Positions 20,312 through 61,629 of a stretch of DNA of 64,000 nucleotides are shown here, one piece after another; the stretch's first letter is position 1, and each line of letters opens with the position of its first letter. The notes beneath the pieces were generated by a model. The model saw nothing but the letters and a program-made list of their open reading frames with translations. It did not search any database and was not told where the DNA came from. Source of the stretch: an uncultured Candidatus Saccharibacteria bacterium (GTDB taxonomy: Bacteria > Patescibacteriota > Minisyncoccia > Phycocordibacterales > EsbW-18); assembly GCA_964478705.1 (NCBI GenBank), contig CAYZIR010000002.1:23760-87759 (forward strand). The letters run 5' to 3'. A program made the position numbers and the translations under genes.

Positions 20312-20355
20312 AAACAAAATCCAATTTCTCACGCTAAGAAATTGGATTTTGTTTC
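20312..20355. repeat. 18-bp perfect inverted repeat (8-nt loop) upstream of grpE-dnaK; terminator and/or heat-shock operator candidate
   Basis: aaacaaaatccaatttct-cacgctaa-agaaattggattttgttt. Confidence 0.6.
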
Positions 20356-23201: not shown

Positions 23202-24686
23202 ATGCCTACTAAACGTCACACAATTTCTCTCAGCAAGCATCTGGATTTGACTCGCAAAAAATTGGAAAAGATTGGTGTTTTTGACGCAACCCTCGGTGTT
23301 GATACGAGACTCTTTATAGATCCTAAGCTTCTCATCAGATCTAAAATTCCCGAATTTAAGACGTCACGTTATAAAATACTGAAACATTTTGCCAAGCTGA
23401 TTCGCATTCATAAGCTATCTACTAAATCTTCACAGCTTGGCGAGATTGCGCTTTCAATGCTTGCGGTTCCCGAACCTCAAGGACTTGCGATTGGGTACGG
23501 ACATACGACGGATCGAGGTGTGGCAATTTCTGAATCAATCGCAAGAAAGATACTGTTACAGCTCAGTGAAATGATGTCTGTTGGATTGCAGGATAAAGAG
23601 TTGGTCGAACTAATGGCGCTGTTTGTGAAAGGATTTGCCTCCGACAGCATCAGTGATCTGTCGGCACATATTATTTATGACGATCTGTGTAGATATACAG
23701 AGCGAATAGCTAAAAAATTAAAGGTAGAAACAACACTTTTTGATGTAGGGGATAAAAAATACCAGTTACCTAAGCACCCTTTTAAAAACTCACAGGTAAT
23801 TTTTGTTCCTCACACTCTACTCAGCCCACTTCCTGTAGCTACTTCATGGGAGGAAATAGAAGCTGCTGCTGCACACAATCGAAAACTGAGGAAAACTTTT
23901 AGTGAAATTGTTAAGCCTAGTGTATATGCTGCGATCAAAGATTTGGAACGTCTGAATCCTGAGGAACGTGAGGATTTCAAGAGCGCGATAGAGAAGCTTG
24001 TTGAAGTCTATCAGGGTATTCGGGTATCGACATATAGCCTGCGACAAGATCGAAAGGGGTATTACGGCATCCAACCGTTTGTAGACAAGGAAGAGTCCAA
24101 TTATATTCCGTCTAACCTACCGACAACTGCGGAGGAACTAATCACTTCGGTTCGAGAGATTATCACACAGTACCAAAAATCTATTGAACATAATGCTGGT
24201 AATCGACTGCTCTATCATCGAACAAAATCAGGTTCAATTTTGAAAAATAAACCCCATAACGAAGACGTCGCTCAAAATTTGTTCTTCCAACTCGCTGATC
24301 AATACTGCTCAATGGCCAATATTCTTTTGTCCAGAGAGCCTAATGCGGGTATAGGTGCTGTTGATTTTTCATTAGGAAAAGGTTACGACTCTAAAATCTT
24401 AGTCGAAATCAAAAAATCTACCAACACTGGACTAGAGAGCGGCTACAAAAAACAAATAACGGCTTACGAGAAAAGCGAGTCATCAAAGCACTCTTTTTTT
24501 GTTGTGATTATCGTAAAGGAAGGAAAAAAGAAGAAAAATGAGTACCCCCCACAACTCCAAACGGTTAAAAATCTATACGACTCAAATGTCAGCAAATCTA
24601 TCTCTACTCCAGAATTGTTTATCATTGATGGCCTGATCTATCCCTCTCCCAGTAAGCGTCGTGAGAAAAGCAATACCTTATCTTAA
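23202..24686 (+). CDS. hypothetical protein with a PD-(D/E)xK-like motif near the C-terminus; candidate restriction endonuclease
   Basis: No recognised N-terminal domain; GAVDFSL...ILVEIKK fits D...ExK; AT-rich; first gene of a four-gene operon with an MTase. Confidence 0.4.
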   Translation: MPTKRHTISLSKHLDLTRKKLEKIGVFDATLGVDTRLFIDPKLLIRSKIPEFKTSRYKILKHFAKLIRIHKLSTKSSQLGEIALSMLAVPEPQGLAIGYGHTTDRGVAISESIARKILLQLSEMMSVGLQDKELVELMALFVKGFASDSISDLSAHIIYDDLCRYTERIAKKLKVETTLFDVGDKKYQLPKHPFKNSQVIFVPHTLLSPLPVATSWEEIEAAAAHNRKLRKTFSEIVKPSVYAAIKDLERLNPEEREDFKSAIEKLVEVYQGIRVSTYSLRQDRKGYYGIQPFVDKEESNYIPSNLPTTAEELITSVREIITQYQKSIEHNAGNRLLYHRTKSGSILKNKPHNEDVAQNLFFQLADQYCSMANILLSREPNAGIGAVDFSLGKGYDSKILVEIKKSTNTGLESGYKKQITAYEKSESSKHSFFVVIIVKEGKKKKNEYPPQLQTVKNLYDSNVSKSISTPELFIIDGLIYPSPSKRREKSNTLS

Positions 24687-24719
24687 TTTTATGGCCCTGT
24701 AGTAGGGTTGGGTTCAAAT

Positions 24720-25580
24720 ATGACCCCAGAACTGCTATATTTAAGGCCTCCCATGGCCACAAAAACGCAAACAAAGAAGGTGTTAGAGTCTGTTGGCCAG
24801 AAGCCGTATTTTCATGGTGATGATTTTGCCCTCTACCACGGCGATTCAATCGAACTCCTTTCAAAACTTCCTGAAAATTCAATCGACATGATTTTTGCCG
24901 ATCCTCCGTACAATCTCTCGAACGGAGGTTTTAGTGTTCATGCTGGACGCATGGTGAGTGTCAACAAGGGTGACTGGGACAGAAGTAAGGGTTTTCAAAA
25001 CGACTATGAATTTCATGTCCGCTGGCTCGAAGCCGTTCGTAAAGTACTAAAACCAGGAGGAACATTGTGGGTGAGTGGAACATATCACTCAATTTATCAA
25101 TGTGGCCATGCCATTCAATCGCTCGGATACCACATTTTGAATGATGTTTCGTGGTTTAAGCCAAACGCTTCGCCAAACTTAAGCTGCCGCTTCTTCACTG
25201 CAAGCCACGAAACATTAATTTGGGCACGCAAAGACAAGAAGGCAAAACACACCTTCAATTACGATAAAATGAAGAATGGTGATTGGGGTAGTGATTTCAT
25301 TAAAAAACCAGGGCTACAAATGCGCTCTGTCTGGTCTGTAGGAACACCAAAGCCGGACGAAAAGAAATTTGGTAAGCACCCGACACAAAAACCACTTGAA
25401 CTTTTGCGCCGTATTGTCCTGGCAAGTACCAAAAAAGGGGATATTGTTCTTGATCCATTCACCGGTAGTTCAACCACAGGTATCGCTGCTGCAAAAGAGG
25501 GTAGGAAGTTTATTGGTATTGATATGGAAAAGAACTACCTTGATCTTTCCGTTAAAAGGTTTAATTCTATTAAAATATGA
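24720..25580 (+). CDS. beta-class N6-adenine/N4-cytosine DNA methyltransferase
   Basis: Motif IV DPPY lies before motif I (DPFTGSSTTGIAA), i.e. beta-class permutation; the ORF track starts it at TTG 24708 but the first ATG is 24720. Confidence 0.85.
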   Translation: MTPELLYLRPPMATKTQTKKVLESVGQKPYFHGDDFALYHGDSIELLSKLPENSIDMIFADPPYNLSNGGFSVHAGRMVSVNKGDWDRSKGFQNDYEFHVRWLEAVRKVLKPGGTLWVSGTYHSIYQCGHAIQSLGYHILNDVSWFKPNASPNLSCRFFTASHETLIWARKDKKAKHTFNYDKMKNGDWGSDFIKKPGLQMRSVWSVGTPKPDEKKFGKHPTQKPLELLRRIVLASTKKGDIVLDPFTGSSTTGIAAAKEGRKFIGIDMEKNYLDLSVKRFNSIKI

Positions 25581-26098
25581 AAGAAGGTGGCTTTGGGGGA
25601 GGAAACACCATAACCGGATTAAACTTTGAAAAGGAGACGGATATCCTTTCTCTTTTGGCAACAAAAGCCGGATACGAAGTCAAAGACAACGTTATTTTCT
25701 ATGAAGGAAAGGAGGTTGCAAGAAACTATCGAAAAAATGGACTTTACAAGTTTCTCGAATCAAAAGGTGTCGACTATAAGAAAATTCTTTCCAAGAAACT
25801 CCTACCGGACGATGCACTTTATGTGATTTTAAACAACACTCTTTTTGTCATCGAAGTAAAGTTCCAAAAGGTTGCAGGTTCGGTTGACGAAAAGCTTCAA
25901 ACCTGCGATTACAAACGGAAACAGTACGCAAAATTGATGGCGCCTCTTAATATCGAGGTTGAGTATATTTATATTTTGAGCGACTGGTTTCGTGCAGAGT
26001 CTTATAAAGACACTTTAGATTACATAATCTCTGTTGGTTGTCAGTATTACTTCAAATATCTTCCTCTGCAAAAATTAGGATTGCCAGTACCGAACTAA
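25577..26098 (+). CDS. small PD-ExK-like protein, putative restriction endonuclease or partner subunit
   Basis: ATGA overlap with the MTase stop (translational coupling); DD...LFVIEVKFQK fits a D-x12-ExK core. Confidence 0.35.
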   Translation: MKEGGFGGGNTITGLNFEKETDILSLLATKAGYEVKDNVIFYEGKEVARNYRKNGLYKFLESKGVDYKKILSKKLLPDDALYVILNNTLFVIEVKFQKVAGSVDEKLQTCDYKRKQYAKLMAPLNIEVEYIYILSDWFRAESYKDTLDYIISVGCQYYFKYLPLQKLGLPVPN

Positions 26099-26106
26099 TC
26101 AAAAAA

Positions 26107-27789
26107 ATGCCTACAATAAATAATTCGACCAAGAAGACTCTTTCGAGTGTATTTGATAAGACTATTTTTAATATTCCTAGATACCAACGAGCTTACTCTT
26201 GGGAGGAAAGCAATTGGCGCGAATTGTGGGACGATATTAAAAATAATGTTCTAGAAAAAGACAAGGAGCATTTTCTTGGAGCAATAATTTATTATCATGG
26301 AGATTCCGGTGGCTCTCGATACACACATTATGAGGTCATTGACGGACAACAACGCATTACCACGCTCACAATCTTAATGCGTGTTCTATATGAAAAACTG
26401 AGAGAAAACAACGTTGAAGTCTATCAGAGATTTGCTGATGAACTCTATGAAAAATATATTGGTGATATAGAAAATGAAACTTTCTTCCTTAATTTAAGTA
26501 AAAAAGATCAAGTTTTCTTTAGAGAGTTTATCCAAAAGAGCGTTCCAATTAGAAAACAGGGGAAGTTAATTTCCAACAAAAGCATAAGAAAGTGTTATGA
26601 ATTTTTTGTAAAGAAAATCGATGACATTTCAAAAGAGAGCGGCATAAAAGAAATTGAAGAATTCTGTTGGGAATTAAAAAAGAAGCTCGAAACTAATTTG
26701 GTTTTTGTCGTCATTGATGTGAATACTGATGTAGATGCATATATGATTTTTGAAAGCATCAATTCCAAAAGACAAGGACTAACAACATCCGATCTTCTTA
26801 AAAACTATATATTTTCGGCTGCTGATCAATACGAAAAGATAAAGCCTGAATCAAAAAAATTATCAATTACAGAAGACGCATGGGACAGGATGGAACAAGA
26901 GCTAGACAGAATTGAAATAAACCAATATGTTCGACACTTTTGGATATCAAACTACGGAAAGGTTTTTGAGAAAGAACTTTATCAACAAATAAAACTCAAA
27001 TTCAATAATAATAACGAGGCGATATTAAACTTCTTTGAGAACGTCGTAACCGAGTCAGAGGCTTATTCGAGCATATTTAATGCAAACATTTCCAACTTTC
27101 CACAAGATGGTCTTCATGCGCTAGAACAACTACGTCAACTAAAAAATAGACAATACTACCCTTTAATACTATCTGCTTTGTCTGGGTGGCCTTCTCAGGA
27201 AGTTTCCGATCTCATAAAACAAATAGCTTCAGTGGCAGTTAGAAGAGCGCTTATTGGCAAAAACCCAAATGAACTAGAGAATTTCTTTGCTGAAAGCGCT
27301 TCAAAACTTAGAACCAAGAATGTTACCCCCCAAGATCTCATAACGATCCTTGCTACAGACTTCTGGATTGAAGACAGCGAGATCTTGGAAGAAATTAAAG
27401 ATACAGATTTCGAAGACCAGGAATACCTTGCAAAGTTCTTACTTAAGGAATTTGAAACAAGCAGTAATCCTGCCAATGAGAAAAGTCTTGGCAAGGTATC
27501 ACTTGAACATATTTTACCTAGAAATCCTGAGAGAGTTGAGGATTGGGATATGAAAGAAGATAGACAGACCGAGCTTGTTTGGAATATTGGCAATCTTGCC
27601 TTAATTGGTCAGACTTACAATAATAAGATGTCTAATAAATCTTTTTTAAAAAAGAAACCTTGGTTTAAGAAAACAGAAATTAAAACAACAGTTATTTTGG
27701 CAGAACACGAACAGTGGACAGAGAAGGAGATCTTAGAAAGAAACGCTCAGGTTGGAAAGTTTTTGATAAGATGGTGGGCAAAAAGTTAA
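26107..27789 (+). CDS. GmrSD-family type IV (modification-dependent) restriction enzyme-like protein (DUF262 + DUF1524)
   Basis: N-terminal DUF262 hallmarks (PRYQRAYSW, DGQQRITT); C-terminal His-Me/HNH-like block (SLEHILP...NIGNLALIG..YNN). Confidence 0.8.
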   Translation: MPTINNSTKKTLSSVFDKTIFNIPRYQRAYSWEESNWRELWDDIKNNVLEKDKEHFLGAIIYYHGDSGGSRYTHYEVIDGQQRITTLTILMRVLYEKLRENNVEVYQRFADELYEKYIGDIENETFFLNLSKKDQVFFREFIQKSVPIRKQGKLISNKSIRKCYEFFVKKIDDISKESGIKEIEEFCWELKKKLETNLVFVVIDVNTDVDAYMIFESINSKRQGLTTSDLLKNYIFSAADQYEKIKPESKKLSITEDAWDRMEQELDRIEINQYVRHFWISNYGKVFEKELYQQIKLKFNNNNEAILNFFENVVTESEAYSSIFNANISNFPQDGLHALEQLRQLKNRQYYPLILSALSGWPSQEVSDLIKQIASVAVRRALIGKNPNELENFFAESASKLRTKNVTPQDLITILATDFWIEDSEILEEIKDTDFEDQEYLAKFLLKEFETSSNPANEKSLGKVSLEHILPRNPERVEDWDMKEDRQTELVWNIGNLALIGQTYNNKMSNKSFLKKKPWFKKTEIKTTVILAEHEQWTEKEILERNAQVGKFLIRWWAKS

Positions 27790-27830
27790 AATAGGACAGA
27801 CACCTTTTTGAAAAATGGTAGAATGGGTGA

Positions 27831-28472
27831 ATGTACATCACCAAAATCGGCCATTGTTGCCTCCGTATCAAGGTTAACGGAGTAACATTCCTCACCGACC
27901 CGGGAGCGTATTCAGAAGGACAGGGGAGTGTCACGGGTATTGATATCATCCTTATCACCCACGAACATGGGGATCACCTCCACATCGAGTCGCTGAAAGA
28001 GGTGTTGAAGAACAATCCGACCGCAGACGTGATTACAAATGCAGGCGTCGGAGCTAAGCTTGGTGAAGCGGGGATTCCGTACACGATTTTGCAGGGAAGA
28101 GACTCATCCGAATCTCGAGGAATCATGCTCGAAGCATTCGATGCGAAGCACGAAGAGATCTTTGAGGACTTCGGTCAGGTGCAAAACACCGGCTATTTCA
28201 TTGCAGAGAAATTCTTTTATCCCGGCGACGCATTCAAAGACCCTGAACGCCCCGTCGATATCCTCGCGCTCCCCGTTGCAGGACCATGGTGCAAAATTGC
28301 TGATGCGGTTCACTATGCCCTGAGAGTGAAGCCTCGTGTCGCATTCCCGGTCCATGATGCAGGTGTCATTGAAGAGCGCCTCGGCAGTGCTCATGGCGCT
28401 CCCGCGCATTTCCTCCCAAAGCACGGCATTGAATTTGTCACTCTCAAAGAAGGTGATTCACACGAATTTTAG
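27831..28472 (+). CDS. MBL-fold metallo-hydrolase
   Basis: HEHGDH motif. Confidence 0.8.
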   Translation: MYITKIGHCCLRIKVNGVTFLTDPGAYSEGQGSVTGIDIILITHEHGDHLHIESLKEVLKNNPTADVITNAGVGAKLGEAGIPYTILQGRDSSESRGIMLEAFDAKHEEIFEDFGQVQNTGYFIAEKFFYPGDAFKDPERPVDILALPVAGPWCKIADAVHYALRVKPRVAFPVHDAGVIEERLGSAHGAPAHFLPKHGIEFVTLKEGDSHEF

Positions 28473-29894: not shown

Positions 29895-29937
29895 ACCACC
29901 CGCGGAGGCCACGCCTTCTTGGGTGGTCTTTTTGTTT
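29895..29937 (+). terminator. rho-independent terminator
   Basis: ACCACCC...GGGTGGT stem followed by CTTTTTGTTT. Confidence 0.6.
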
Positions 29938-29957: not shown

Positions 29958-30227
29958 TTATTCTAAGTTTCTGCAGAAACCGAGAACCCTTGCACCGGTG
30001 TCGGTGAGGAGATGTTCAAGGGCAAGTCCGTTTCTCCGTTTTGTAATCAAACCAGCCAACGCAAGCTTCCGTAGGTGCTCAGATATCGTTCTGAAATCAC
30101 CTCGGAGTGTGTCGGCGATGTCGAGTCCTGATAGTTTTGGCCGGCGTTCAAGCACGAGCAATATGTTGAGTCGATGAATATTTGCACACCCCTTAAAAAT
30201 TCGTTCCAATTCTTTTTGGTTTTTCAT
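29958..30227 (-). CDS. ArsR/SmtB-family HTH transcriptional regulator
   Basis: 89-aa winged helix (NIHRLNILLVL...LSGLDIADTL...ISEHLRKL); TATACT -10 directly before the ATG, so leaderless. Confidence 0.75.
   Translation of the reverse strand: MKNQKELERIFKGCANIHRLNILLVLERRPKLSGLDIADTLRGDFRTISEHLRKLALAGLITKRRNGLALEHLLTDTGARVLGFCRNLE
29967..29980. promoter_or_regulatory. palindromic operator candidate copy 1, inside the 3' end of the arsR-like CDS
   Basis: Perfect 14-bp palindrome GTTTCTGCAGAAAC. Confidence 0.45.
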
Positions 30228-30290: not shown

Positions 30291-30842
30291 GTGGTAAAAT
30301 GCGAGTCTATGAAAAAACCGACGCGTCAAAAACGAACAAAGATGGTTGTCGTCAACGACTCTATGCAAAAGGGCTATCGGTATGAGCTCGTAGAACCAAT
30401 CGGTAAAAATTTTGATCCCACATTCAAACCAGATCTGACGCCTAAAGAAATACTCAAGCTCGGCATCTTCGGCGGGCTTCACCTGAACGATTGCACAAAA
30501 GAGTTTCCGAAGAGCTGGTTTGCTGGCGTGCAGTTTTCAAGCACAGGAAAACACGAAGCGAAGCTAAACTATTTTGGTGTAAACGCGTCGCAATCATTGG
30601 CTGAATGGAAACGTAAGGGCTGGGTTTATAAAGATGACCCGCGAGGGTGGTTTCAGTGGTACTGTCGCTACTACATGGGTCGCCGTATCCCGAAAGAAGA
30701 CGCGCGACAAATCAAACGCTGGAAGGCAATCACTCGTCATATTGCCCAAATCAAACACAACTGCAGAGCGGGGGATATCATGTGTCGCCCCGTCCAACGC
30801 CAAGCGCTCCTCCACTGGGCATACGATTCACGAAAATTTTAA
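30291..30842 (+). CDS. hypothetical protein with a conserved W/Y/R-rich C-terminal block
   Basis: GTG start; GWFQWYCRYYMGRR...IKRWKAITRH block of unknown family. Confidence 0.45.
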   Translation: MVKCESMKKPTRQKRTKMVVVNDSMQKGYRYELVEPIGKNFDPTFKPDLTPKEILKLGIFGGLHLNDCTKEFPKSWFAGVQFSSTGKHEAKLNYFGVNASQSLAEWKRKGWVYKDDPRGWFQWYCRYYMGRRIPKEDARQIKRWKAITRHIAQIKHNCRAGDIMCRPVQRQALLHWAYDSRKF

Positions 30843-30855
30843 ACTTCTTAAGCAT

Positions 30856-30895
30856 TTGCACATTCTCAAGTTCTTAAGAACTTGAGAATGTGCAA
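30856..30895. repeat. 40-bp perfect palindrome
   Basis: ttgcacattctcaagttcttaagaacttgagaatgtgcaa; all 20 base pairs verified by hand. Confidence 0.9.
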
Positions 30896-30951
30896 GTGTG
30901 CTGTGAGAGGTTGGGCGGGTTTTCTGAGCTCTATTCAAGCCTATTTCTATT

Positions 30952-30973
30952 CTCTATTTCTGCAGAAACAGAG
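30952..30973. promoter_or_regulatory. palindromic operator candidate copy 3, upstream of gene 31081
   Basis: CTCTATTTCTGCAGAAACAGAG, with a perfect 12-bp core. Confidence 0.5.
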
Positions 30974-31080
30974 AAGCCTCTTTTGTTAATTCGCACCATT
31001 TCACATTCTTGTCTTTTTAAGTCCGAGGCGTATACTCGCGGGAGATTGAACCAACCGATAGACGGGAAAGGAGATGACTC

Positions 31081-31626
31081 ATGAAAGCGATCGTTGGATA
31101 CGATAGGGATTTTGGTGTGCAGTTCTTCCGTCGAACGTTCGCAGAACTAACATCACAAGGTATCGATCTGTGGAAAGCGATTACAGAGGAAGAGCGAGAA
31201 TACATCGCTCAAAGGCTCGGTGACACGCTGGTTTTGCATCCATATTCTAAACTAGGGTCACCCTGGATTTCAGACGATTTTAAGAAGCTTTTCAAAGATG
31301 GGAAGTACTGCGTCGATCGGGTGACACACGACCGTGCTGAACTCATGGCAAATCAAATTCTGATCTACCAAGGCATCGTCTCCCTGGGAGGAATCTGGAA
31401 ATTCAGAGATGGTCGTTCGACCGGTACGACTCGTGCTTTCTACGAAGACGTTGCGGCAAAGCTCTTTCGTATCGCTGCTCGGTGGCCTTATCTGAACTCC
31501 GACGAACGGAGGGTTCTGAATGAGGTGGGAGAACACACGAGCTTGTGGATTGATATCTTGGCTCAGGTGATGGGGAATGACTATCTCGAAGAACTCGGGA
31601 CAGGCAGTCCAATCGTTCTCGCCTGA
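31081..31626 (+). CDS. hypothetical protein
   Basis: AGGAG SD 8 nt upstream; terminator downstream. Confidence 0.55.
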   Translation: MKAIVGYDRDFGVQFFRRTFAELTSQGIDLWKAITEEEREYIAQRLGDTLVLHPYSKLGSPWISDDFKKLFKDGKYCVDRVTHDRAELMANQILIYQGIVSLGGIWKFRDGRSTGTTRAFYEDVAAKLFRIAARWPYLNSDERRVLNEVGEHTSLWIDILAQVMGNDYLEELGTGSPIVLA

Positions 31627-36669: not shown

Positions 36670-38055
36670 ATGACTGAGGGCACACAGGTAACCATGGAGT
36701 CAATCATCAGCCTCGCTAAGCGACGCGGGTTTGTGTATCCCGGCTCCGAGATTTATGGCGGAATGGCTGGAATGTATGACTTTGGCCCATACGGTGTTGA
36801 ACTCTTAAACAACATCAAAAAGGCTTGGTGGGAAGAACACGTTCAAAAACGTGACAACTACGTTGGTCTTGATTCGGCGATGTTTAAGGATCCGCGTGTT
36901 TGGGAAGCGTCTGGACACACCAGCGGTTTTTCTGACCCGCTCTCTGAGTGCAAAAAGTGCAACACCCGCATCCGTGTTGATAAAGAGTTGGAAAAGATAG
37001 GCGTTACCGCTGACGAAAAAATGACCGAGGCTCAACTGAACACGCTCTTTGACGAACACAAGACAAAAATAAAGTGTCCTAAGTGTGGAGCAAATGACTT
37101 CACACCCGTCCGTGCGTTTAACCTTTTGGTAAAGACAAACATGGGCGACTTCACCGGCAAGAACGAACAGCCGGTCTACCTCCCAGGAGAAGCGTGCCAG
37201 GGAATCTATTTGAACTTCAAAAACGTCGTGGACACCACACGCGTAAAGATTCCTTTTGGTATCGCACAAATTGGTAAGGCGTTCCGCAATGAAATCTCGC
37301 CACGCAACTTCTTGTTCCGCACGCGTGAGATGGAACAAGCCGATACACAATTTTTTGTTCGCCCGAATGAAAACAAAGAAGCATACGATCGCATCAAGAA
37401 CGAACGCTTTACCTGGTATATAAAAATGGGCATCCGAGAGGAGAATTTGCGTTGGAAACAGCACGAGAACCTCGTTTTTTACGCTTCTGATGCATGGGAT
37501 ATCGAATATAACTTCCCATCCTACGGCTTTGACGAGATGGAGGGTATCCACGACCGCACCGACTACGATCTGACCCAGCATATGAAGCATTCAGGAACCG
37601 ACCTGAACTATACGGACCCGCATACCGGAGAAAAATACATTCCATGGATCTTGGAAACATCGGTCGGGCTTGGACGCATGTTCCTTGCATTCATCTCTGA
37701 CGCGTACGCGGAAGAAGGTGTTGGTGAAGAGTCTCGTACGGTTCTGAAGCTTTCTCCAAAGCTTGCACCAATTAAAGCAGCGGTTTTCCCGCTCTTGAAG
37801 AATAAACCCGAGCTCGTCGAGAAGGCTCGCGCGGTATTCGATATGTTAAAAGAACGCGTTCGATGTGAATTCGACGACAACGGTAACATCGGCAAACGCT
37901 ATCGAAGGCAGGATGAGATAGGCACACCGCTCTGCATCACGATCGACTTCGACACGCTTGAAAACGACACCGTGACCGTTCGCGATCGCGACACCATGGA
38001 GCAGGCGCGTGTCCCTATCTCTGAGCTTCTCGCACGTGTTACCCGCGACCTCTAA
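36670..38055 (+). CDS. glyQS: glycyl-tRNA synthetase (alpha2 class II, archaeal/eukaryotic-like)
   Basis: SLAKRRGFVYPGSEIYGG N-terminus; TGCTATATT -10 element 6 nt upstream of the ATG. Confidence 0.85.
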   Translation: MTEGTQVTMESIISLAKRRGFVYPGSEIYGGMAGMYDFGPYGVELLNNIKKAWWEEHVQKRDNYVGLDSAMFKDPRVWEASGHTSGFSDPLSECKKCNTRIRVDKELEKIGVTADEKMTEAQLNTLFDEHKTKIKCPKCGANDFTPVRAFNLLVKTNMGDFTGKNEQPVYLPGEACQGIYLNFKNVVDTTRVKIPFGIAQIGKAFRNEISPRNFLFRTREMEQADTQFFVRPNENKEAYDRIKNERFTWYIKMGIREENLRWKQHENLVFYASDAWDIEYNFPSYGFDEMEGIHDRTDYDLTQHMKHSGTDLNYTDPHTGEKYIPWILETSVGLGRMFLAFISDAYAEEGVGEESRTVLKLSPKLAPIKAAVFPLLKNKPELVEKARAVFDMLKERVRCEFDDNGNIGKRYRRQDEIGTPLCITIDFDTLENDTVTVRDRDTMEQARVPISELLARVTRDL

Positions 38056-38059
38056 ATAT

Positions 38060-39007
38060 ATGTCTAAAAAAATCTTACTTTCAGGAATACAGCCGAGCGG
38101 TGTTTTGCACATCGGAAACTATTTTGGTGCGATGAAGCAGTTTGTTGATATGCAGGAAGACTACGAATCCTACATTTTTATCGCCAACTATCACGCGCTC
38201 ACAACACTTCAGGATGCCGAAAAGCTCTCACAGTACACACTTGATAGCGTGATTGACCACTTGGCGGTTGGTCTCGACCCGAAGAAGGCAACAATTTTCG
38301 TCCAGTCGGATGTTCCACAGGTCACCGAGCTCACGTGGATCTTCAATACGCTCATCACCGTGCCATACATGGAACGCGCGGTCGCTTTTAAAGACAAAGT
38401 CGCGAAGGGGATTGAACCGACCATGGGACTGTTTGACTATCCGGTCTTGATGGCCGCAGATATTCTCTTACCGTTGGCGGACATCATCCCGGTTGGTCAA
38501 GATCAAAAGCAACACGTCGAATACGCACGCGATATCGCACAGAAGTTCAACAACACGTTTGGTGAGGTATTTAAAATTCCTGAAGCAAAGATTTTACCTG
38601 AAGTCGCAACGGTGCCTGGCACTGACGGACAGAAGATGAGCAAGAGCTACGGCAATACGATTCCGCTCTTCTCCACACGCGAAGAAATCACCAAAGCGGT
38701 TATGTCGATCGTGACCGACTCATCGGGCGGTATCCCGGTGAACGTCTACAACCTCCACAAGTGCTTCCGCCCTGAAAGTGAATTAAAAGAGCTCTACGAA
38801 GCTAACAAGGGAAGCTACAAGACGCTCAAAGAGGCGTTGATTGAAGATATTGATGCGTTTATCGCACCACTTCGCGAACGCCGTGCAGAGATTGCACAGG
38901 ACAAAGATGCGGTTATCGCAATGCTCAAAGAAAACGGTGAGAAAGTTCGTGCTCGCGCAGAGAAGGTGATGGATGACGTGCGAAAGAAGACGGGGTTGAA
39001 GTTCTAA
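38060..39007 (+). CDS. trpS: tryptophanyl-tRNA synthetase
   Basis: HIGN variant and KMSKS motifs. Confidence 0.9.
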   Translation: MSKKILLSGIQPSGVLHIGNYFGAMKQFVDMQEDYESYIFIANYHALTTLQDAEKLSQYTLDSVIDHLAVGLDPKKATIFVQSDVPQVTELTWIFNTLITVPYMERAVAFKDKVAKGIEPTMGLFDYPVLMAADILLPLADIIPVGQDQKQHVEYARDIAQKFNNTFGEVFKIPEAKILPEVATVPGTDGQKMSKSYGNTIPLFSTREEITKAVMSIVTDSSGGIPVNVYNLHKCFRPESELKELYEANKGSYKTLKEALIEDIDAFIAPLRERRAEIAQDKDAVIAMLKENGEKVRARAEKVMDDVRKKTGLKF

Positions 39008-39010
39008 AAG

Positions 39011-39040
39011 AAAAAGACCGCGGGGTTCCGCGGTCTCGGC
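39011..39040. terminator. bidirectional terminator
   Basis: GACCGCGG-ggtt-CCGCGGTC; A-run on its left gives a U-run for the minus gene. Confidence 0.6.
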
Positions 39041-39094
39041 GTCAGGGCGCCATCGATTCTGCTCCTGCTAGGGGCGACTGCCTCGAAACTCACA

Positions 39095-39370
39095 CTAGCG
39101 ACTCCTCAACTTCTCAAGGTTTTCTACAAAAGTTCGGAGACCCTCAATCATCTCTCCGAGAAACTTGATAGAAAAACTTTGAGTGAAAGTTGCATTGGAG
39201 TATCGAATCCAGACGAAGGTCTCACCGTCCTCATAGAACAGTGCGTCCTCGCAGAATGCGTACTCGATGATGTCCTCGGTGGTAGCCGAGTACAAATCAT
39301 CTCGCTCGAGCACCACTACTGAGCTGATATCAGCCCGAGAGGGTAGCCACTGTGGGATTTCAGAGTACAT
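39095..39370 (-). CDS. hypothetical protein
   Basis: GGAGG SD; TTGACA -35 upstream on the minus strand. Confidence 0.45.
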   Translation of the reverse strand: MYSEIPQWLPSRADISSVVVLERDDLYSATTEDIIEYAFCEDALFYEDGETFVWIRYSNATFTQSFSIKFLGEMIEGLRTFVENLEKLRSR

Positions 39371-39489
39371 ATCGTCCTCCTAGCTCGTATCGAGCCAGAG
39401 AACTAATCTGTTCGGCGTAGGCCGATACGATTCCTTTTATATCGTATCATTTAAATTATATTTGTCAATTCATAAAAAACGTGCTTCAT

Positions 39490-39745
39490 GTGATATGTTT
39501 TATGAGTAAAGACACCGACGCCGATGACACGGCCGAGTTGGGGAAAGAACCCTCGAAAGAGGTAGTAGAATCTCCCGGGGATGCCCGTAATAGCTGTAAT
39601 GAAGATCCTCCTACGCCAAGGCTTCGGAGGATGCAGTAAGGTGGTACCGCGCTTGGTCTTCCGAAGCCGTTTGAGGCGAAGGAGACACCACAATCGCCCT
39701 TACAAAAGTCACTGACTATTCGGTGGTTTTTGTAAGGGCTATTTT
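39490..39745 (+). promoter_or_regulatory. T-box riboswitch-like leader
   Basis: AGUAAGGUGGUACCGCG at 39635-39651 matches the T-box consensus; GUAAGG pairs with CCUUAC at 39688-93, which is also part of terminator stem CCCTTACAAAA/TTTTGTAAGGG + TATTTTTGTTT (39683-39750); GAC Asp codons followed by A in a 5' stem-loop. Confidence 0.5.
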
Positions 39746-39750
39746 TGTTT

Positions 39751-40059
39751 ATGAAACCAGACACAGTATCATTCATCTATCGATGGCAAATTCCACCCGA
39801 CCTTCACGAGAGCTTCTTACAACAATGGGAAGAACTCTCAAAAATAAACGTCGAGAAATATGGCCTGATAGATGCAAATCTCTATCGCATCGAACCAGAT
39901 AATTTCGTTTCAGTGACACAATGGCCTGATGAAGAAAGTTGGAAAAAATGGAAGGAAAATGATGCGAATCATGAATACCGAGAACGATGGAGACCGTATC
40001 GCATAGCAGGACCAGAACAAATGAGCAGTATTGTTAAAATAGCTAACATTAAACCATGA
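39751..40059 (+). CDS. small ABM/Dabb-like protein (putative monooxygenase fold)
   Basis: 102-aa ORF right after the T-box terminator, overlapping the aspS start by 4 nt. Confidence 0.4.
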   Translation: MKPDTVSFIYRWQIPPDLHESFLQQWEELSKINVEKYGLIDANLYRIEPDNFVSVTQWPDEESWKKWKENDANHEYRERWRPYRIAGPEQMSSIVKIANIKP

Positions 40060-41462
40060 ACCCACGCACACTCATCAAAGATCTCTCAGACCATGTTGGT
40101 AAAGAAGTATATTTTTCTGGATTCGTTCACGCGCGTCGTGACCATGGAAAAATTGTTTTCTTCGATATGCGCGACGAGACAGGGCACGTACAGACTGTTA
40201 TCTCAAGCAAAAATGAAGCTGTGTTCGCGTCAATCAACGATGTGCGCAGTGAGTGGGTACTTACGATCAAAGGTTTGGTTAAAGCGCGTCCGGAAAAGCT
40301 CGTGAACGTTGATGAGGCGAATGGTGGCATCGAGGTTGAAGCGCTTGAAGTGGAAGTGTTGAACAAAGCGAACACACCACCATTTGACCCGACAGCGGAC
40401 ACCGCAGGTATCAACGAGGAAACCCGTCTCCAGTATCGCTACATTGACCTTCGTTCGGAGCGTATGCAAAAGAATATTCGATTGCGAAGCGAGTGGGTGC
40501 GTCGCTGCCGTGACTACCTCTTCGGCGAGCGATTTGTCGAGATTGAAACACCGCTCCTCACACAATCAACGCCTGAAGGTTCACGCGACTTCATCATCCC
40601 ATCACGCCACAACCCCGGCACCTTCTACGCGCTTCCGCAGTCACCTCAGCAATACAAGCAACTCCTCATGGCATCAGGCTTCGAGCGATACTTCCAAGTC
40701 GCACGCTGTGTACGCGACGAAGACCTCCGTGCTGACCGTGGCTATGAATTCACACAAATCGACCTCGAGATGGCGTTCGTGACCAAAGAGGATGTCATGC
40801 AGACGGTTGAAGCAATGGTGACCTCTGCTGCAGAAGCGATGGGCTTCACTATCAAGGAAAAGCCATTCCCACGCATTTCATACAAAGACGCAATGGCGAA
40901 GTACGGTGCAGACAAATTCGATATGCGCACTGAAGAAGACAAAGCAAACGGCGTCCTCGCATACGCGTGGGTTGTTGATTTCCCATTCTTCGAGAAGACC
41001 GACGAAGGGAAGTGGACGTTCACCCACAATCCATTCTCGATGCCAGCTCCAGAGCACCTCGAGTGGCACATGAAGGGCGAGCATCTTGAAGACATCATCA
41101 CCCAGCAGTACGACCTAGTATGCAACGGCTTTGAGTCAGGCGGGGGAAGCATCCGTGCGCACCAGCCAGAAATCTTACGCGCTACCTACAAGAACATGGG
41201 CTACACAGACCTCGAAATTGAAGAAAGTGTCGGCCATATGCTCGAAGCGTTCGGGTATGGTGTTCCACCGCACGGCGGTATCGCGCTTGGTGTTGAGCGA
41301 AACATCATGAACCTTTCGGGAGAATCATACCTCCGTGAAGTACAGCCATTCCCGATGACCGGACGTGGCAAGACCGCAATCATGAACGCACCAACACCGG
41401 CAACACCGGAACAATTGAAAGAACTCGGCCTCTTGGTCGTGAAGAAAGAAGAGAAGAAATAA
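40056..41462 (+). CDS. aspS: aspartyl-tRNA synthetase (short archaeal-type)
   Basis: OB-fold N-terminus; class II motifs (FQVARCVRDEDLRADR, GGGSIRAH). Confidence 0.9.
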   Translation: MNPRTLIKDLSDHVGKEVYFSGFVHARRDHGKIVFFDMRDETGHVQTVISSKNEAVFASINDVRSEWVLTIKGLVKARPEKLVNVDEANGGIEVEALEVEVLNKANTPPFDPTADTAGINEETRLQYRYIDLRSERMQKNIRLRSEWVRRCRDYLFGERFVEIETPLLTQSTPEGSRDFIIPSRHNPGTFYALPQSPQQYKQLLMASGFERYFQVARCVRDEDLRADRGYEFTQIDLEMAFVTKEDVMQTVEAMVTSAAEAMGFTIKEKPFPRISYKDAMAKYGADKFDMRTEEDKANGVLAYAWVVDFPFFEKTDEGKWTFTHNPFSMPAPEHLEWHMKGEHLEDIITQQYDLVCNGFESGGGSIRAHQPEILRATYKNMGYTDLEIEESVGHMLEAFGYGVPPHGGIALGVERNIMNLSGESYLREVQPFPMTGRGKTAIMNAPTPATPEQLKELGLLVVKKEEKK

Positions 41463-41466
41463 ACCT

Positions 41467-41727
41467 ATGCGTAAAGCCTTTGGTTGTATCTTGGGGAGTT
41501 TGACGATACTCTGTGCGATTGTTCTTGTTCTACTCTCCTTCAGCGTCTATGAAAGAAAGCTTTATTATGACAAAGGAGTTGTCGGACCACGTGTAGAAGT
41601 TGGTGGCACTGATCTTTCGGTACGCCAAGAGTGTCTGACAAGAAACCGAATCCCTTGGGAAATTGACGACGGAATTCTCTATGTCAGTGAACAAGATTTT
41701 GACAGTGTGATCAGCGCATGCGCATAA
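41467..41727 (+). CDS. hypothetical small membrane protein
   Basis: 86 aa with an N-terminal TM helix. Confidence 0.4.
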   Translation: MRKAFGCILGSLTILCAIVLVLLSFSVYERKLYYDKGVVGPRVEVGGTDLSVRQECLTRNRIPWEIDDGILYVSEQDFDSVISACA

Positions 41728-41757
41728 TTCTCTTTATTCCTAGGGTATAATAAGACA

Positions 41758-42510
41758 ATGAGTTTCGCAGTCAAAACTCCTGTCTTTGAAGGTCCGCTTG
41801 ATCTGTTGCTTTCGCTTATCGAAAAACGGAAGCTTTTGATCAACGACGTGTCGCTCGCATCCGTTGCGGACGATTATATGGCACACCTCCAAACGACTGA
41901 GAAGTTCCCGACACACGATGTCGCTCAATTTGTGCTCATTGCTTCAACCTTGGTGTTGATTAAGTCACGCTCGTTGCTACCAGAATTCATCTTAAGTAGC
42001 GAAGAAGAATCGGATGTGAAGGAGCTCGAACGACGATTACAGATGTATAAAATCATTCAAGAAGCGTCCCAGAGTCTTCGTGTTCGATTTGGCAAAGCCG
42101 TGTTGCATGAGAGCGTGCGTTCCGCATCAATGGATACGATGATATTTGCTCCGCATGCGGGCATCACACAAAGCGCACTACGAACCGCGGTCGATTGGAT
42201 TATCGCGCGATTTCCAAAAGTTGAAGCACTCAAGAAGACCGTCGTCGAAAAAATCATGAGTCTTGAAGACATGATGACAACATTGTCTGGCCGTATCCGC
42301 TCAGCGATCAAACTTCGCTTCAGTGACTTTGCAAAATCAGCATCAGCGCATGGAAAAACAGAACGGGAAGTGAAGGTGAACACCATCGTCTCATTTTTGG
42401 CGATGCTCGAATTGGTGAAGCAGGGTATACTGATGGTCGAACAGCGCGGTCTTTTTGCCGATATCGATATGGAACCGCACGCTGTCGCAACGCCGGACTA
42501 TTCTTCCTAA
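41758..42510 (+). CDS. scpA: segregation and condensation protein A
   Basis: FEGPLDLLLSLIEKRKL N-terminus; TATAAT 6 nt before the ATG. Confidence 0.8.
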   Translation: MSFAVKTPVFEGPLDLLLSLIEKRKLLINDVSLASVADDYMAHLQTTEKFPTHDVAQFVLIASTLVLIKSRSLLPEFILSSEEESDVKELERRLQMYKIIQEASQSLRVRFGKAVLHESVRSASMDTMIFAPHAGITQSALRTAVDWIIARFPKVEALKKTVVEKIMSLEDMMTTLSGRIRSAIKLRFSDFAKSASAHGKTEREVKVNTIVSFLAMLELVKQGILMVEQRGLFADIDMEPHAVATPDYSS

Positions 42511-42512
42511 CA

Positions 42513-43100
42513 ATGAATCTCTCAAACACCATCGAATCAATACTTTTTTTCAAGGGTGAGCCACTTTCTATCAAAGAGTTGGCGAAGCTTTCAGGCGCAT
42601 CACCTGAAGAGGTTCGAAATGCACTCACTACATTAGGAGAGAGTCTTACGGGACGGGGGGTTGTTCTCGTACAAACCGATGACGAGGTGGCTCTTCGCAC
42701 AGCGCCTGAGAGTGCAGAACTTATTGAGCAACTGCGCAAAGACGAGCTTGAGAAGGATATCGGAAAGGCTGGCCTTGAGACGCTCGCAGTCGTTCTCTAT
42801 CAAGGCCCGGTGACCCGCGCGCACATCGACCACGTACGCGGTGTGAACTCAGCATTCATTGTTCGAAATCTTATGATTCGTGGACTGATTGAACGCGTTG
42901 ACAACCCACACGATCAGCGAAGTTTCCTTTACAAACCAACGCTCGAATTGTTATCGTTTCTAGGCGTCCCTTCGCGCGAAGCACTTCCTGATTGGGAGCA
43001 TGTCCGTAACGCGCTTGGAGCACTTGATGCCGTACCAATAGAAAACGATACACCTAATGCCACCACTACAGCAGACACCACAACCGGAGGAGCGGAATAA
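42513..43100 (+). CDS. scpB: segregation and condensation protein B
   Basis: Tandem wHTH, ESILFFKGEPLSIKEL. Confidence 0.8.
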   Translation: MNLSNTIESILFFKGEPLSIKELAKLSGASPEEVRNALTTLGESLTGRGVVLVQTDDEVALRTAPESAELIEQLRKDELEKDIGKAGLETLAVVLYQGPVTRAHIDHVRGVNSAFIVRNLMIRGLIERVDNPHDQRSFLYKPTLELLSFLGVPSREALPDWEHVRNALGALDAVPIENDTPNATTTADTTTGGAE

Positions 43101-43992
43101 TACAGCGCTCATTTTAACTGGACTCTTATGTATCCTTCTCATCGGAGCAGGGGTCTATTTTTCAACGTACCGACGAAGCGGTCGTACCGATATCCCCGCA
43201 GAAACAAATTCATCGACAGTGACCGATACCAAATGGGACACACTGACGCTTGAAGCACAGGCGGTGTATGTGCTCGATGCGCGAAATCGAGAGCCATTAT
43301 TTGCAAAAAACAGCGACACACCTCTCCCATTGGCATCACTCACGAAGCTACTCACCGCACTCGTCGCTCTTACCACGCTCCCTGAAGATACCCTTGTCAC
43401 AATCGATGCATCATCGCTTCTCACCGAAGGGGACAGTGGACTTGTGGCAGGAGAAACATTCGCACTCAACGATTTGGTTGCGTTCATGCTTGTGGTTTCA
43501 TCGAATGACGCTGCAACAGCACTGCGCCATGCATATGAATCGAAAACCGGTGGTTCTTTTATAACCGCAATGAATGCTGAAAGTGAGCGCTTGGGACTCT
43601 CGTTAAGCTTCCAAAATGAAACAGGGCTCGATGTCGGAGAGATTCCAGCAAATATGGGAAGTGCCCGCGATGTTGCTTTTTTGATGGCAGAAACACTTCG
43701 TCGAATACCCGATGCGCTCGATGCAAGTCGAAACGATTCATTTGTGCTGATCTCACGGGAGGGGAATCGACACGCTGTTAAAAGTACCAACATGATTGCC
43801 AACGATATTCCATGGTCACTCGGCGCAAAAACTGGCTTCACTGACAGCGCGGGAGGCAATCTTGCAATCTCACTTGATACATCAATCGGGTATCCTGTCG
43901 TTATCGTCGTACTTGGCTCAAGTAAGGAGGGGCGTTTCAGTGATGTAACGCAACTCGTTAACGCGACTCTTCACGGTGCGAGCCAAAAATAA
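43057..43992 (+). CDS. D-alanyl-D-alanine carboxypeptidase (S11, PBP5/6-like)
   Basis: SxxK (ASLTK), SxN (SSND) and KTG motifs; N-terminal TM helix. Confidence 0.75.
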   Translation: MPPLQQTPQPEERNNTALILTGLLCILLIGAGVYFSTYRRSGRTDIPAETNSSTVTDTKWDTLTLEAQAVYVLDARNREPLFAKNSDTPLPLASLTKLLTALVALTTLPEDTLVTIDASSLLTEGDSGLVAGETFALNDLVAFMLVVSSNDAATALRHAYESKTGGSFITAMNAESERLGLSLSFQNETGLDVGEIPANMGSARDVAFLMAETLRRIPDALDASRNDSFVLISREGNRHAVKSTNMIANDIPWSLGAKTGFTDSAGGNLAISLDTSIGYPVVIVVLGSSKEGRFSDVTQLVNATLHGASQK

Positions 43993-59709: not shown

Positions 59710-60030
59710 TTAGTTAGATAGAATAGAGTCAACTGCAATCGTCGCAAATGGCTGGCGGTGTCCGCGTTTCTTGTGGTATCGGCTCTTTGCCTTGTATTTG
59801 ACCACTACAACTTTCTTTGCGCGACCCTCAGATTCGTAGGTTCCAGTGACCTTTGCACCTGCGATGTATGGTGTGCCGATGGTTGTCGTCTTGCCATCAT
59901 CAACGAGGAGCACTTTGTCGAAAGCGATTTTCTCTCCCGCCTTTGCGTCCTTAATGATTTCAGTGGTGAAGCGGCTCTTCTCGGTAACGAGATACTGCTT
60001 TCCGCCGGTCTGTATAACTGCGAATTTCAT
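59710..60030 (-). CDS. rplU: 50S ribosomal protein L21
   Basis: MKFAVIQTGGKQY L21 N-terminus. Confidence 0.9.
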   Translation of the reverse strand: MKFAVIQTGGKQYLVTEKSRFTTEIIKDAKAGEKIAFDKVLLVDDGKTTTIGTPYIAGAKVTGTYESEGRAKKVVVVKYKAKSRYHKKRGHRQPFATIAVDSILSN

Positions 60031-60098
60031 AACAAATGTGATAGTGGAATCATACTAACAGATAATCCGGCCTACGGCAAGGTCTTTTGGAACACATC

Positions 60099-60138
60099 AC
60101 CCTTATTCTCAAGTTCTTAAGAACTTGAGAATAAGGGT
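60099..60138. repeat. 40-bp perfect palindrome sharing its inner 26 bp with the palindrome at 30856
   Basis: acccttattctcaagttcttaagaacttgagaataagggt; all 20 base pairs verified by hand. Confidence 0.9.
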
Positions 60139-60240: not shown

Positions 60241-61629
60241 ATGAAGAACCGTTCCCCGTGGCTCCACCAACTCCGCTCTGATCGCGAGTCAGCACGACTC
60301 TCTCACGATATCTCAACCGATATCGCGATCGTCGGAGCGGGTATCGCAGGTGTCGCGACCGCATTCTTCACGCTCAAGTACACAGACAAAACAGTTACCC
60401 TTCTCGAAGCCTTTAAGCTTGCCCACGGTGCAACAGGACACAATGCAGGACAGGTTACCAGCTATTTTGAGCGAGGTTTTGCCAGTATCTCAGATGAGTT
60501 TGGATTAAAGCTTGCTGCCGAAGGACAAAAAAGTGTTGAAGGTGCGTGGGAACTCCTTGATGAGATGTATACCGACGCAGGGCTCACTATCCCCTTCTCC
60601 CGATTCGAAGGGCATGCTGGCCTCTCAACATTCGACCAAGTCATTTTTCATTTGCGTAACAATCATGCGCGAAAGAATGCGGGTCTTCCTGTCGAGACAT
60701 TTCGCATCTCAGAGAATGCACCCTTTCTTTCAAGTATCTCAGACGAGTACGAGGGGCTTTTCTCGATTGTTCCTCATGCAGACATTCTTGCACTCCTTGA
60801 AACACACGATGAACGTTTTTTTGCCACAATTTCCTATCAAAAAGGATGCTTGAACAGTGCGCTCTTTTGTGAAGAAGTAATTTTGTTCCTCCTCAAACAC
60901 TACCCTGACCGATTTGCCCTTTTCGAACACACGCCTATCGCAAAAATTATACTGCATGATGACAAAGCAATACTTGATGCAGAAACGCACACCATCAGCA
61001 CTTCTCGTGTTGTTCTTTGCACCAACGGTTTCGACAATATTCATGTGATTACTGCCGATGGACTTGATATCGACACGAAGCTCCACCACAACATCCACGG
61101 TGTTGTTGGGTATATGTCGGGGTATCTTGAGAAGATGAACAAACTCCCGGGCGCATGGAGCTATCTTCTTCCGCCCGATGAAGCCGATGAGTTTTATCGA
61201 AGTGACCCCGATACCGGTGATCCATACTTTTTGATTACACGACGCCCCTATGTGTACGAAGAAAAAACTGATCACAATTTGATTTCTGTAGCAGGACCCG
61301 AAGTGTCTCTCCCCGATAGACGACACTATTCGCGAGACACCGACTACCCTGATGCAATCACCGATGAAATTGATCGGTTTGTGAAGCAAACGTATAACAT
61401 CGAACCTAACAAAAAGATTGACTATATTTTTACCTGGCACGGATTGATGGGCTACACAAAAAATCTGGTGCGCTTGGTCGGGCCCGAACCGACACATCCA
61501 GTACTTCTGTATAACCTTGGATGCAATGGTGTCGGCATCCTTCCGTCGGTGTTTGGCGGGCGCAGGATTGCTGACGTCATCGCAGAACGTCCCGTTGCTC
61601 CATCGATTTTTGATATTCCAGGAAAATAA
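60241..61629 (+). CDS. FAD-dependent oxidoreductase (DadA/DAO-like)
   Basis: DIAIVGAGIAGVATAF Rossmann dinucleotide-binding motif. Confidence 0.75.
   Translation: MKNRSPWLHQLRSDRESARLSHDISTDIAIVGAGIAGVATAFFTLKYTDKTVTLLEAFKLAHGATGHNAGQVTSYFERGFASISDEFGLKLAAEGQKSVEGAWELLDEMYTDAGLTIPFSRFEGHAGLSTFDQVIFHLRNNHARKNAGLPVETFRISENAPFLSSISDEYEGLFSIVPHADILALLETHDERFFATISYQKGCLNSALFCEEVILFLLKHYPDRFALFEHTPIAKIILHDDKAILDAETHTISTSRVVLCTNGFDNIHVITADGLDIDTKLHHNIHGVVGYMSGYLEKMNKLPGAWSYLLPPDEADEFYRSDPDTGDPYFLITRRPYVYEEKTDHNLISVAGPEVSLPDRRHYSRDTDYPDAITDEIDRFVKQTYNIEPNKKIDYIFTWHGLMGYTKNLVRLVGPEPTHPVLLYNLGCNGVGILPSVFGGRRIADVIAERPVAPSIFDIPGK

Follow-up and report, generated by a model that had tools for sequence, protein, structure and literature searches.

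In the 64,000-nt stretch of the Candidatus Saccharibacteria contig CAYZIR010000002.1 analyzed here (the window, to which all unprefixed coordinates refer), two perfect 40-bp palindromes belong to a family of dispersed sites. Four of the five members in the window lie within 1 kb around the gene of an 89-amino-acid (aa) protein of the ArsR/SmtB fold, hereafter the regulator. The sites and the genes around copy 1 are given below; L-numbers such as L001 denote comparison loci from other genomes or assemblies.

30856..30895: copy 1, a 40-bp palindrome starting 14 nt past the stop codon of a 177-aa gene
60099..60138: copy 2, a 40-bp palindrome in the divergent intergenic region between rplU and an FAD-dependent oxidoreductase gene
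29961..29986: sister site TTCTAAGTTTCTGCAGAAACCGAGAA, covering the final nine codons of the regulator gene, directly before the stop codon; same arrangement in L001–L010
30245..30270: sister site TTCTTAGTTTCTGCAGAAGCTAAGAA, in the promoter region between the divergent genes, 18 bp before the regulator ATG and 38 bp before that of the 177-aa gene
30950..30975: sister site TTCTCTATTTCTGCAGAAACAGAGAA, 105 bp upstream of the open reading frame (ORF) 31081–31626
29958..30227, minus strand: gene of the regulator, an 89-aa winged-helix protein of the ArsR/SmtB fold that presumably binds the palindromes
30309..30842, plus strand: 177-aa gene, divergent from the regulator; the ATG at 30309 was chosen by comparison with the gene call in L001

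Copy 1 (ttgcacattctcaagttcttaagaacttgagaatgtgcaa) and copy 2 (acccttattctcaagttcttaagaacttgagaataagggt) are each self-complementary over 20 + 20 bp without a mismatch and have in common a 26-bp core, TTCTCAAGTTCTTAAGAACTTGAGAA, at 30863–30888 and 60106–60131. Both lie exactly where an original prediction, made from the sequence, had placed them. The core occurs exactly twice in the window, even with three mismatches allowed, and in none of 100 dinucleotide-preserving shuffles. The outer 7 bp of each arm differ between the copies (TTGCACA/TGTGCAA in copy 1 vs ACCCTTA/TAAGGGT in copy 2) while symmetry is perfect in both, again as first described. From the between-site control rates at flank positions 14–20, the chance of full complementarity over a 7-bp flank is about 5e-4 for a single site; thus, two such flanks are far beyond chance. 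The core fits the motif TTCT-N4-TTCT-N2-AGAA-N4-AGAA, a 12-2-12 inverted repeat of 26 bp, which has five exact matches in the window (starting at 29961, 30245, 30863, 30950 and 60106) against 0.57 expected even with three mismatches. The twin pair of the original prediction is therefore real, but three imperfect members, the sister sites, had been overlooked. These have the centre TTTCTGCAGAAA and imperfect spacers, and were also found in an inverted-repeat scan as weaker palindromes near copy 1, which itself lies about 0.6 kb from the regulator gene. Scored with a position weight matrix derived from sites in other genomes, the twin copies reached 45 bits and the sister sites 12–19 bits, and no other position in the window rose above the noise level of 3.5 bits, the maximum in shuffles.

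The regulator matches the Pfam families HTH_20 and HTH_5. All 28 aligned family members match NCBIfam HTH_metalloreg, the window protein with 42.7 bits, which is under the 55-bit cut-off of that model. A family profile compared against the PDB gave HlyU as the best match (3e-12), together with CadC, CzrA, SmtB, NolR and PagR. The AlphaFold2 (AF2) model of the 89-aa protein, with a predicted local distance difference test score (pLDDT) of 94.9, displays the canonical ArsR/SmtB element order α1-α2-α3-α4-β1-β2-α5. Its top Foldseek matches are ArsR (6j05), CadC, PagR, CzrA, SmtB and HlyU, with query-normalised TM-scores of 0.74–0.88. No α3N (CXC) or α5 metal ligands and no conserved Cys/His set are visible in the family alignments, so that a metal signal is unlikely. 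The protein resembles the small ArsR members without metal sites, such as HlyU. The family comprises at least 3140 clusters at 90% identity under generic names ("winged helix-turn-helix", "ArsR family"). A search of the literature on the motif, on regulators of Patescibacteria and Saccharibacteria and on palindromic elements of the candidate phyla radiation (CPR) found no description of either the regulator family or the motif.

Comparison across lineages revealed that the site and the protein are kept together. Orthologues of the regulator are 90% identical in L001–L006, 60% in L007–L010 (Candidatus Paceibacterota) and 56% in L011. The site directly upstream of the gene is kept in all three groups, and the second site, over the last codons, in the 90% and 60% groups. 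The upstream sites (30245 and its orthologues) lie 3–60 bp before the regulator ATG, and at least 18 further lineages also have a site before this gene. At the other end of the gene, the last nine codons, with the consensus (I/V)L.F(L/C)R.LE plus stop, spell the motif as ATT CTN NNN TTC TNN AGA ANN NNA GAA TAx, and the segment thus encoded forms the C-terminal half of helix α5 in the AF2 model. Codon usage was compared between the last ten codons and the rest of the gene in 28 regulators. Arg was encoded by AGA in 21 of 24 cases in the last ten codons vs 57 of 250 elsewhere, Phe by TTC in 27 of 36 vs 19 of 64, and Glu by GAA in 20 of 21 vs 104 of 171. These biased codons at the 3′ end show that the terminal site is constrained at the DNA level. 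In a second regulator subfamily, the site starts at the last codon and the stop codon (TTC TAA).

A search by pattern only, for TTCTNNNNTTCTTAAGAANNNNAGAA in one genome per species, returned at least 119 stretches, of which 80 loci were listed. At least 42 of these 80 bear the names of Patescibacteria, namely Saccharibacteria and Paceibacter-, Kaiser-, Harrison-, Levy-, Wildermuth-, Colwell-, Lipton- and Moranii-bacteria. Other matches belong to Planctomycetota, Verrucomicrobiota and a few Clostridium, the last of which are probably chance. At least 25 of the 119 loci, selected without regard to genes, encode a homologue of the 89-aa protein beside the site, and clustering of the neighbours by BLAST gave the regulator as the only recurrent one. 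Cores identical to the 26 bp of the window occur in L020 and L066, which are independent assemblies. Among 2.9 million viral contigs the TTCT motif had a single match, and a phage origin of the sites was rejected on that count. Two other candidate observations were also given up: an enrichment of DNA-repair neighbours (UDG, RadC, UvrD, RuvX, PolA exonuclease, the DNA_alkylation family and NUDIX) was an impression without statistics, and an apparent clustering of start codons 7–21 bp from the sites, seen in our own ORF calls, was discarded given that stop codons within the palindrome bias such calls. In some lineages three to five sites are arrayed within 0.7 kb around the regulator gene, as in L083 (5827–6501, Bacterium HR35) and L117 (1119–1600), which suggests cooperative or multi-site control there.

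The 177-aa protein next to copy 1 is 90% identical in L001 (L001 9385–9918), with the same arrangement of sites. In both the window and L001 its gene is divergent from the regulator and bracketed by sites, in the window by 30245 at the 5′ end and copy 1 at the 3′ end; the divergent pair thereby has a site at the 3′ end of each gene and another in the promoter region between them. Neither the 177-aa gene nor a neighbouring 181-aa gene has a Pfam, NCBIfam or PHROG match. The orthologue of copy 1 in L001 occupies the same position with an imperfect core and non-complementary flanks, and the gene downstream of it is unrelated to that in the window. Downstream of the sister site at 30950 is a promoter-like TTGTCT-16-TATACT at 31009–31036. 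A partial repeat of the palindrome centre, cTTCTTAAGc, is located at 30847–30854, 17 nt upstream of the first TTCTTAAG of copy 1. It may be left over from slippage or template switching, or be a half-site that has decayed.

Copy 2 lies among the following features.

59710..60030, minus strand: rplU (ribosomal protein L21), left neighbour; Pfam Ribosomal_L21p, 2.5e-31
60241..61629, plus strand: FAD-dependent oxidoreductase (DAO family), right neighbour; Pfam DAO
60052..60080, minus strand: putative rplU promoter TTGCCG-17-TAGTAT, by consensus match only; TTGCCG-17-TAGAAT in L136 and L137
60213–60221, plus strand: putative extended −10 element TGCTACAAT of the oxidoreductase gene, by consensus match, compared with TGGTACACT in L132, L136 and L137

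The oxidoreductase has more than 2800 homologues, mostly named Paceibacterota or Parcubacteria. Its TGGTACACT/TGCTACAAT element lies 11–25 bp upstream of the ATG in L132, L136, L137 and the window; from their sequences, this element and TTGCCG-17-TAG(A/T)AT look like conserved promoters in these Paceibacterota. Copy 2 begins 18 bp upstream of the putative −35 hexamer of rplU. A further consensus match on the minus strand, TTGACG-16-TAGAAT, is specific to the window and would place a transcription start at the palindrome edge. The orthologous locus L136 has the same gene order, RecR-rplU/oxidoreductase, and contains the site GCTTA-TTCTCATGTTCTTAAGAACATGAGAA-TAAGC, centred near −61 relative to rplU and −53 relative to the oxidoreductase. 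Relative to copy 2, flank position 18 and spacer position 7 are changed in both of its arms in a complementary way. In L137 there is no site in the spacer between the two genes, and the left flank CACCCTTA is kept. Of the other loci considered for this comparison, L131 and L132 extend too short a distance upstream and L133 has a different upstream context. A metagenome scan anchored on the rplU −35 region returned no further rplU spacers; it returned regulator genes of another subfamily (codons of ..PYGK..).

About 18 sites across genomes fall within long reading frames. One frame prevails by 18:4, in which CAT TCT NAC NTT CTT AAG AAN NTN AGA ATG is read as HS(N/H)(V/I)LKN(V/I)RM. Ten of the enclosing frames were checked, and nine match a Pfam family (TsaD twice, Mur ligase twice, MnmA, YchF, Wzy, a pyridoxal-phosphate enzyme and, weakly, an amidohydrolase); only that of L018 has no match. 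The TsaD genes of Harrisonbacterium (L014 3098–3123) and Kaiserbacterium (L079 7734–7759) have the palindrome in the same loop, between HxExH and SGGHT. Against solved homologues, the enclosing proteins compare as follows.

MurD, L012: an 11-aa insertion exactly at the palindrome
MnmA, L047: about 50 extra residues with two copies
YchF, L090: length unchanged
TsaD, L014: length unchanged

The MnmA gene of L047 (6410–7783, minus strand) holds its two copies at ORF nt 1035–1130 as in-frame perfect 30-bp palindromes 66 bp apart. They read HSNILKNVRM and HANILQNVSM, the second departing symmetrically from the motif. Such in-frame copies raise the possibility that the unit has propagated.

The symmetry of the arms was analyzed over 158 non-redundant sites, with positions counted from the centre and arms taken from different sites as the control. 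The arms are complementary above the control at spacer positions 6, 7 and 9, where conservation is poor, and at flank positions 14–17 (0.87, 0.65, 0.69 and 0.54 vs 0.65, 0.37, 0.30 and 0.27); the excess is weak at positions 18–21 and absent beyond. Where all inner pairs are perfect, the next position is complementary with a probability of 0.6–0.83 as far as about position 25. Once any mismatch has occurred, this probability stays at the background of 0.25–0.32 from position 18 onward. At least 20 perfect pairs are present in 15 of the 158 sites, the longest having 34. The compensating outer arms are real and family-wide. Given its all-or-none course, unbroken outward, the pattern does not fit a protein reading independent half-sites. 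The original prediction had taken the differing arms as compensatory change that implies selection on a hairpin. The twin copies are not orthologous, and the pair alone shows no such change; the part of the claim that stands is that arms are kept complementary beyond the motif, as seen in the family statistics and a few orthologous comparisons.

Copying of one arm onto the other by template switching fits the all-or-none pattern, which persists inside coding sequence, at least as well as stem selection. In the second in-frame copy of L047, TTCT is changed to TGCT together with AGAA to AGCA and the centre TA to GC, and a perfect 30-bp palindrome remains. At copy 1, the right flank TGTG is common to the window and L001, and the left flank in L001 is not complementary. 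These comparisons and that of copy 2 with L136 and L137 suggest that one arm was copied from the other: one arm looks ancestral (CACCCTTA at copy 2, TGTG at copy 1) and the other is its reverse complement. Template switching makes quasipalindromes perfect or more perfect (PMC7202029). This outcome of the template switching described in E. coli by the Lovett laboratory matches the unbroken outward complementarity and the symmetrical double changes of the present family. The process differs in being known as a mutational hotspot mechanism in reporter genes, whereas here it would act as a long-term force on a family of sites. We regard it as the most economical account of the arm symmetry, as the pattern suggests.

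We consider it probable that the palindromes are operators of an ArsR-fold regulator widespread in CPR bacteria. The twin copies would then be the two best matches in the window of a dispersed unit, (C/T)A-TTCT-N4-TTCT-N2-AGAA-N4-AGAA-T(A/G), which, from its sequence and surroundings, the 89-aa protein most likely recognises. If the analogy to SmtB and CzrA holds, two dimers would read the four TTCT/AGAA tetramers. The regulator gene has a site in its promoter and another over its last codons, which suggests that it is controlled by its own product, possibly through looping or a roadblock. The protein probably does not read the outer arms; intrastrand template switching would perfect the quasipalindrome there, and would also keep the cores symmetrical. 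Among the options first put forward, a site for a dimeric protein is thus the best supported, given the 12-2-12 repeat of the ArsR/SmtB type, the nearby ArsR-fold gene and their pairing in many lineages.

The classical targets of ArsR/SmtB regulators are 12-2-12 inverted repeats that lie before the regulated genes or inside them (PMC8790569). The repressors SmtB, CzrA and ArsR are like the present system in their fold, the 26-bp 12-2-12 geometry, a site in the promoter of the regulator itself and sites within genes (PMC8790569). In contrast, their operators follow a TGAA/TTCA-type consensus and not TTCT-N4-TTCT, and the α3N (CXC)/α5 metal ligands are not conserved here. The site in the last nine codons of the regulator, in its own stop region, the arm symmetry reaching past the motif and the in-frame copies in housekeeping genes also set the present system apart from ordinary ArsR systems, and are only partly explained. 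HlyU, PagR and NolR resemble the 89-aa protein in being small (about 90–100 aa) and without metal sites on the same fold. They bind as dimers to palindromic or near-palindromic DNA, and HlyU exerts its effect from positions upstream of promoters, with which the location of copy 2 near −73 would be in keeping. They differ in lineage (Vibrio, Bacillus and rhizobia) and in target sequence, and are not known to have a dispersed family of highly symmetrical sites.

Several observations weigh against the palindromes being operators of this kind. The genes near the sites are heterogeneous, with 73 Pfam families in 59 proteins, and form no conserved regulon. Copy 1 lies downstream of the 177-aa gene, with the next predicted start about 170 bp further on, and overlaps no core promoter of the consensus type. 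Similarly, the centre of copy 2 lies near −73 relative to rplU and −110 relative to the oxidoreductase, counted from the putative promoters, and overlaps neither core promoter. The roughly 18 sites within long reading frames, and others between convergent genes, would be unusual for a plain operator. No sensor site is evident in the 89-aa protein, the link between protein and site rests on association and geometry, and selection on a DNA or RNA hairpin would also fit as the source of the arm symmetry.

In a broader, tentative proposal, which we hold to be possible rather than probable, the unit and the ArsR-fold protein would form an undescribed, widespread self-maintaining module of Patescibacteria and some Planctomycetota and Verrucomicrobiota. 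Its unit of about 30 bp, in which the gene of the protein ends, would have been spread or rebuilt across the genome, including in frame in essential genes (as HSNVLKNVRM), and kept symmetrical by hairpin copying. The module would serve as a global roadblock, an insulator, a chromosome organiser or a domesticated selfish element, not as an operon-specific operator.

It is unlikely that the ~30-bp palindrome is a past or present propagating unit, intergenic and in-frame, like repetitive extragenic palindromic (REP) sequences or Rickettsia palindromic elements (RPEs), with the ArsR-like protein as its dedicated binder in place of an ordinary regulator and the twin copies as two insertions. The preference for one frame and the recognisable housekeeping enzymes around nine of the ten checked sites would agree with such an origin, as would the in-frame insertions in MurD (L012) and MnmA (L047), the presence or absence of the site in the rplU–oxidoreductase spacer (L136 vs L137) and the heterogeneous neighbour genes. 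RPEs and REPs are likewise short, dispersed palindromic units, and RPEs occur in frame within protein-coding genes. However, RPEs are 100–150 bp long and REPs depend on REP-associated tyrosine transposases (RAYT), whereas the unit here is about 30 bp, of low copy number (five in 64 kb, four of them at the regulator locus) and tied to a winged helix-turn-helix protein. Examined by the features of REP, RAYT and miniature inverted-repeat transposable elements, the sites have no transposase next to them, and their flanks are duplicated in inverted and not in direct orientation. No HUH nuclease or other nuclease was found associated with them either, and an 89-aa winged helix-turn-helix protein is incapable of catalysing transposition. 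Furthermore, orthologous sites are retained (copy 1 in L001, copy 2 in L136 and the same TsaD loop in two CPR classes), the lengths of YchF and of TsaD (L014) are unchanged at the site, and the motif is nearly absent from the viral contigs. Propagation is in any case compatible with the operator explanation and not exclusive of it.

That the palindromes act mainly as RNA hairpins, that is, as terminators, 3′-end stabilisers or RNase III sites whose stem selection explains the outer arms, appears improbable. The twin copies are predicted to fold very stably (−37.1 and −28.1 kcal/mol; z-scores −6.5 and −8.1), copy 1 starts shortly after a stop codon, and some members lie between convergent genes or have a left A-tract and a right T-tract in the manner of bidirectional terminators (L088, L104 and L029). 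However, the sister sites have the motif in common and fold weakly (−7.9 to −12 kcal/mol; z-scores −0.6 to −3.1), which argues that it is the sequence at fixed positions, not the stem, that is conserved; indeed, the tetramers are fixed in position, whereas a stem requires complementarity only. Copy 2 lies between divergent genes, upstream of both conserved putative promoters. Many long perfect palindromes are the promoter sites of the regulator itself (L019, L020, L034 and L038), and perfect 30–42-bp palindromes occur in the frames of MurD, MnmA and TsaD, where a strong mRNA hairpin is expected to be harmful. The return of complementarity to background after a single mismatch is also not predicted by selection for stem stability. 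As regards termination, neither copy is followed by a U-tract (flanks GTGTGCTG and CACTTCAA), and a scan for intrinsic terminators with a G+C-rich stem and U-tract was blank at both. The genome does use ordinary terminators, as indicated by hairpins with A/T-tracts at 485–517, 20312–20354, 52819–52859 and 29912–29935 of the window, which resemble intrinsic terminators of the bidirectional type. The Rfam models gave no match at their gathering scores in the whole 64-kb window. Some members of the family may function as RNA hairpins, but this is not the primary explanation of the twin copies; the RNA stem-loop of the original prediction is accordingly disfavoured as their main role, and its exclusion of a classical terminator holds. 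So does its exclusion of two heat-shock operators, the controlling inverted repeat of chaperone expression (CIRCE), with the consensus TTAGCACTC-N9-GAGTGCTAA, and the HspR-associated inverted repeat (HAIR), CTTGAGT-N7-ACTCAAG. Both of these are found beside chaperone genes and differ from the palindromes in arm sequence and order; dnaJ is 2.5 kb away and no site adjoins it.

We give very little credence to the protein–site pair serving to organise the chromosome or as a kind of centromere, comparable to ParB-parS or to AspA, an ArsR-like protein of archaea, in place of gene-specific regulation. A site in the coding region of the protein itself with others in unrelated genes, as for parS of Bacillus subtilis, the lack of a conserved regulon and the presence of AspA among the profile matches (about 1e-5) would agree with it. 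Against this, no partner ATPase or ParB-like gene stands beside the regulator in the loci examined, the sites are strongly biased to intergenic DNA near gene starts, the cumulative GC skew of the window peaks near 40 kb in a manner more terminus-like than origin-like, and the closer structural relatives of the protein are ordinary repressors. Finally, a chance coincidence or an assembly artefact is refuted by the zero core matches in shuffles, the recurrence of the unit and of identical 26-bp cores in independent assemblies (L020 and L066) and the orthologous sites in independent datasets.

If the palindromes are operators of the ArsR-fold protein, the finding pairs one of the most widespread small regulators of CPR bacteria with a precise DNA motif. 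These bacteria have very few transcription factors, and their gene regulation is almost unstudied. The pair would offer a directly testable entry point to that regulation. The site family is also an apparent natural example of palindrome arms evolving together, including in coding sequence, and is relevant to the role of template switching in shaping bacterial genomes and to the origin and spread of binding sites.

Some further features of the window stand apart from the sites. The region 24000–28000 has a low GC content of 0.36–0.41, vs about 0.47 elsewhere, and contains a gene for a GmrSD-type restriction endonuclease (26038–27789); it is probably a horizontally acquired defence island. The cumulative GC skew has its maximum near 38–42 kb and then falls (~38000–46000), a switch that looks like the terminus type, and AT skew is unusually negative (−0.233) in the 44–46 kb bin. 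At 7426–7503, two 24-nt arms, CATGTAACACGTATCATGTAGCAT and ATGTTACATGATACGTGTTACATG, are 96% complementary and 30 nt apart, in the spacer before the ORF 7494–8174, and are unrelated to the TTCT motif.

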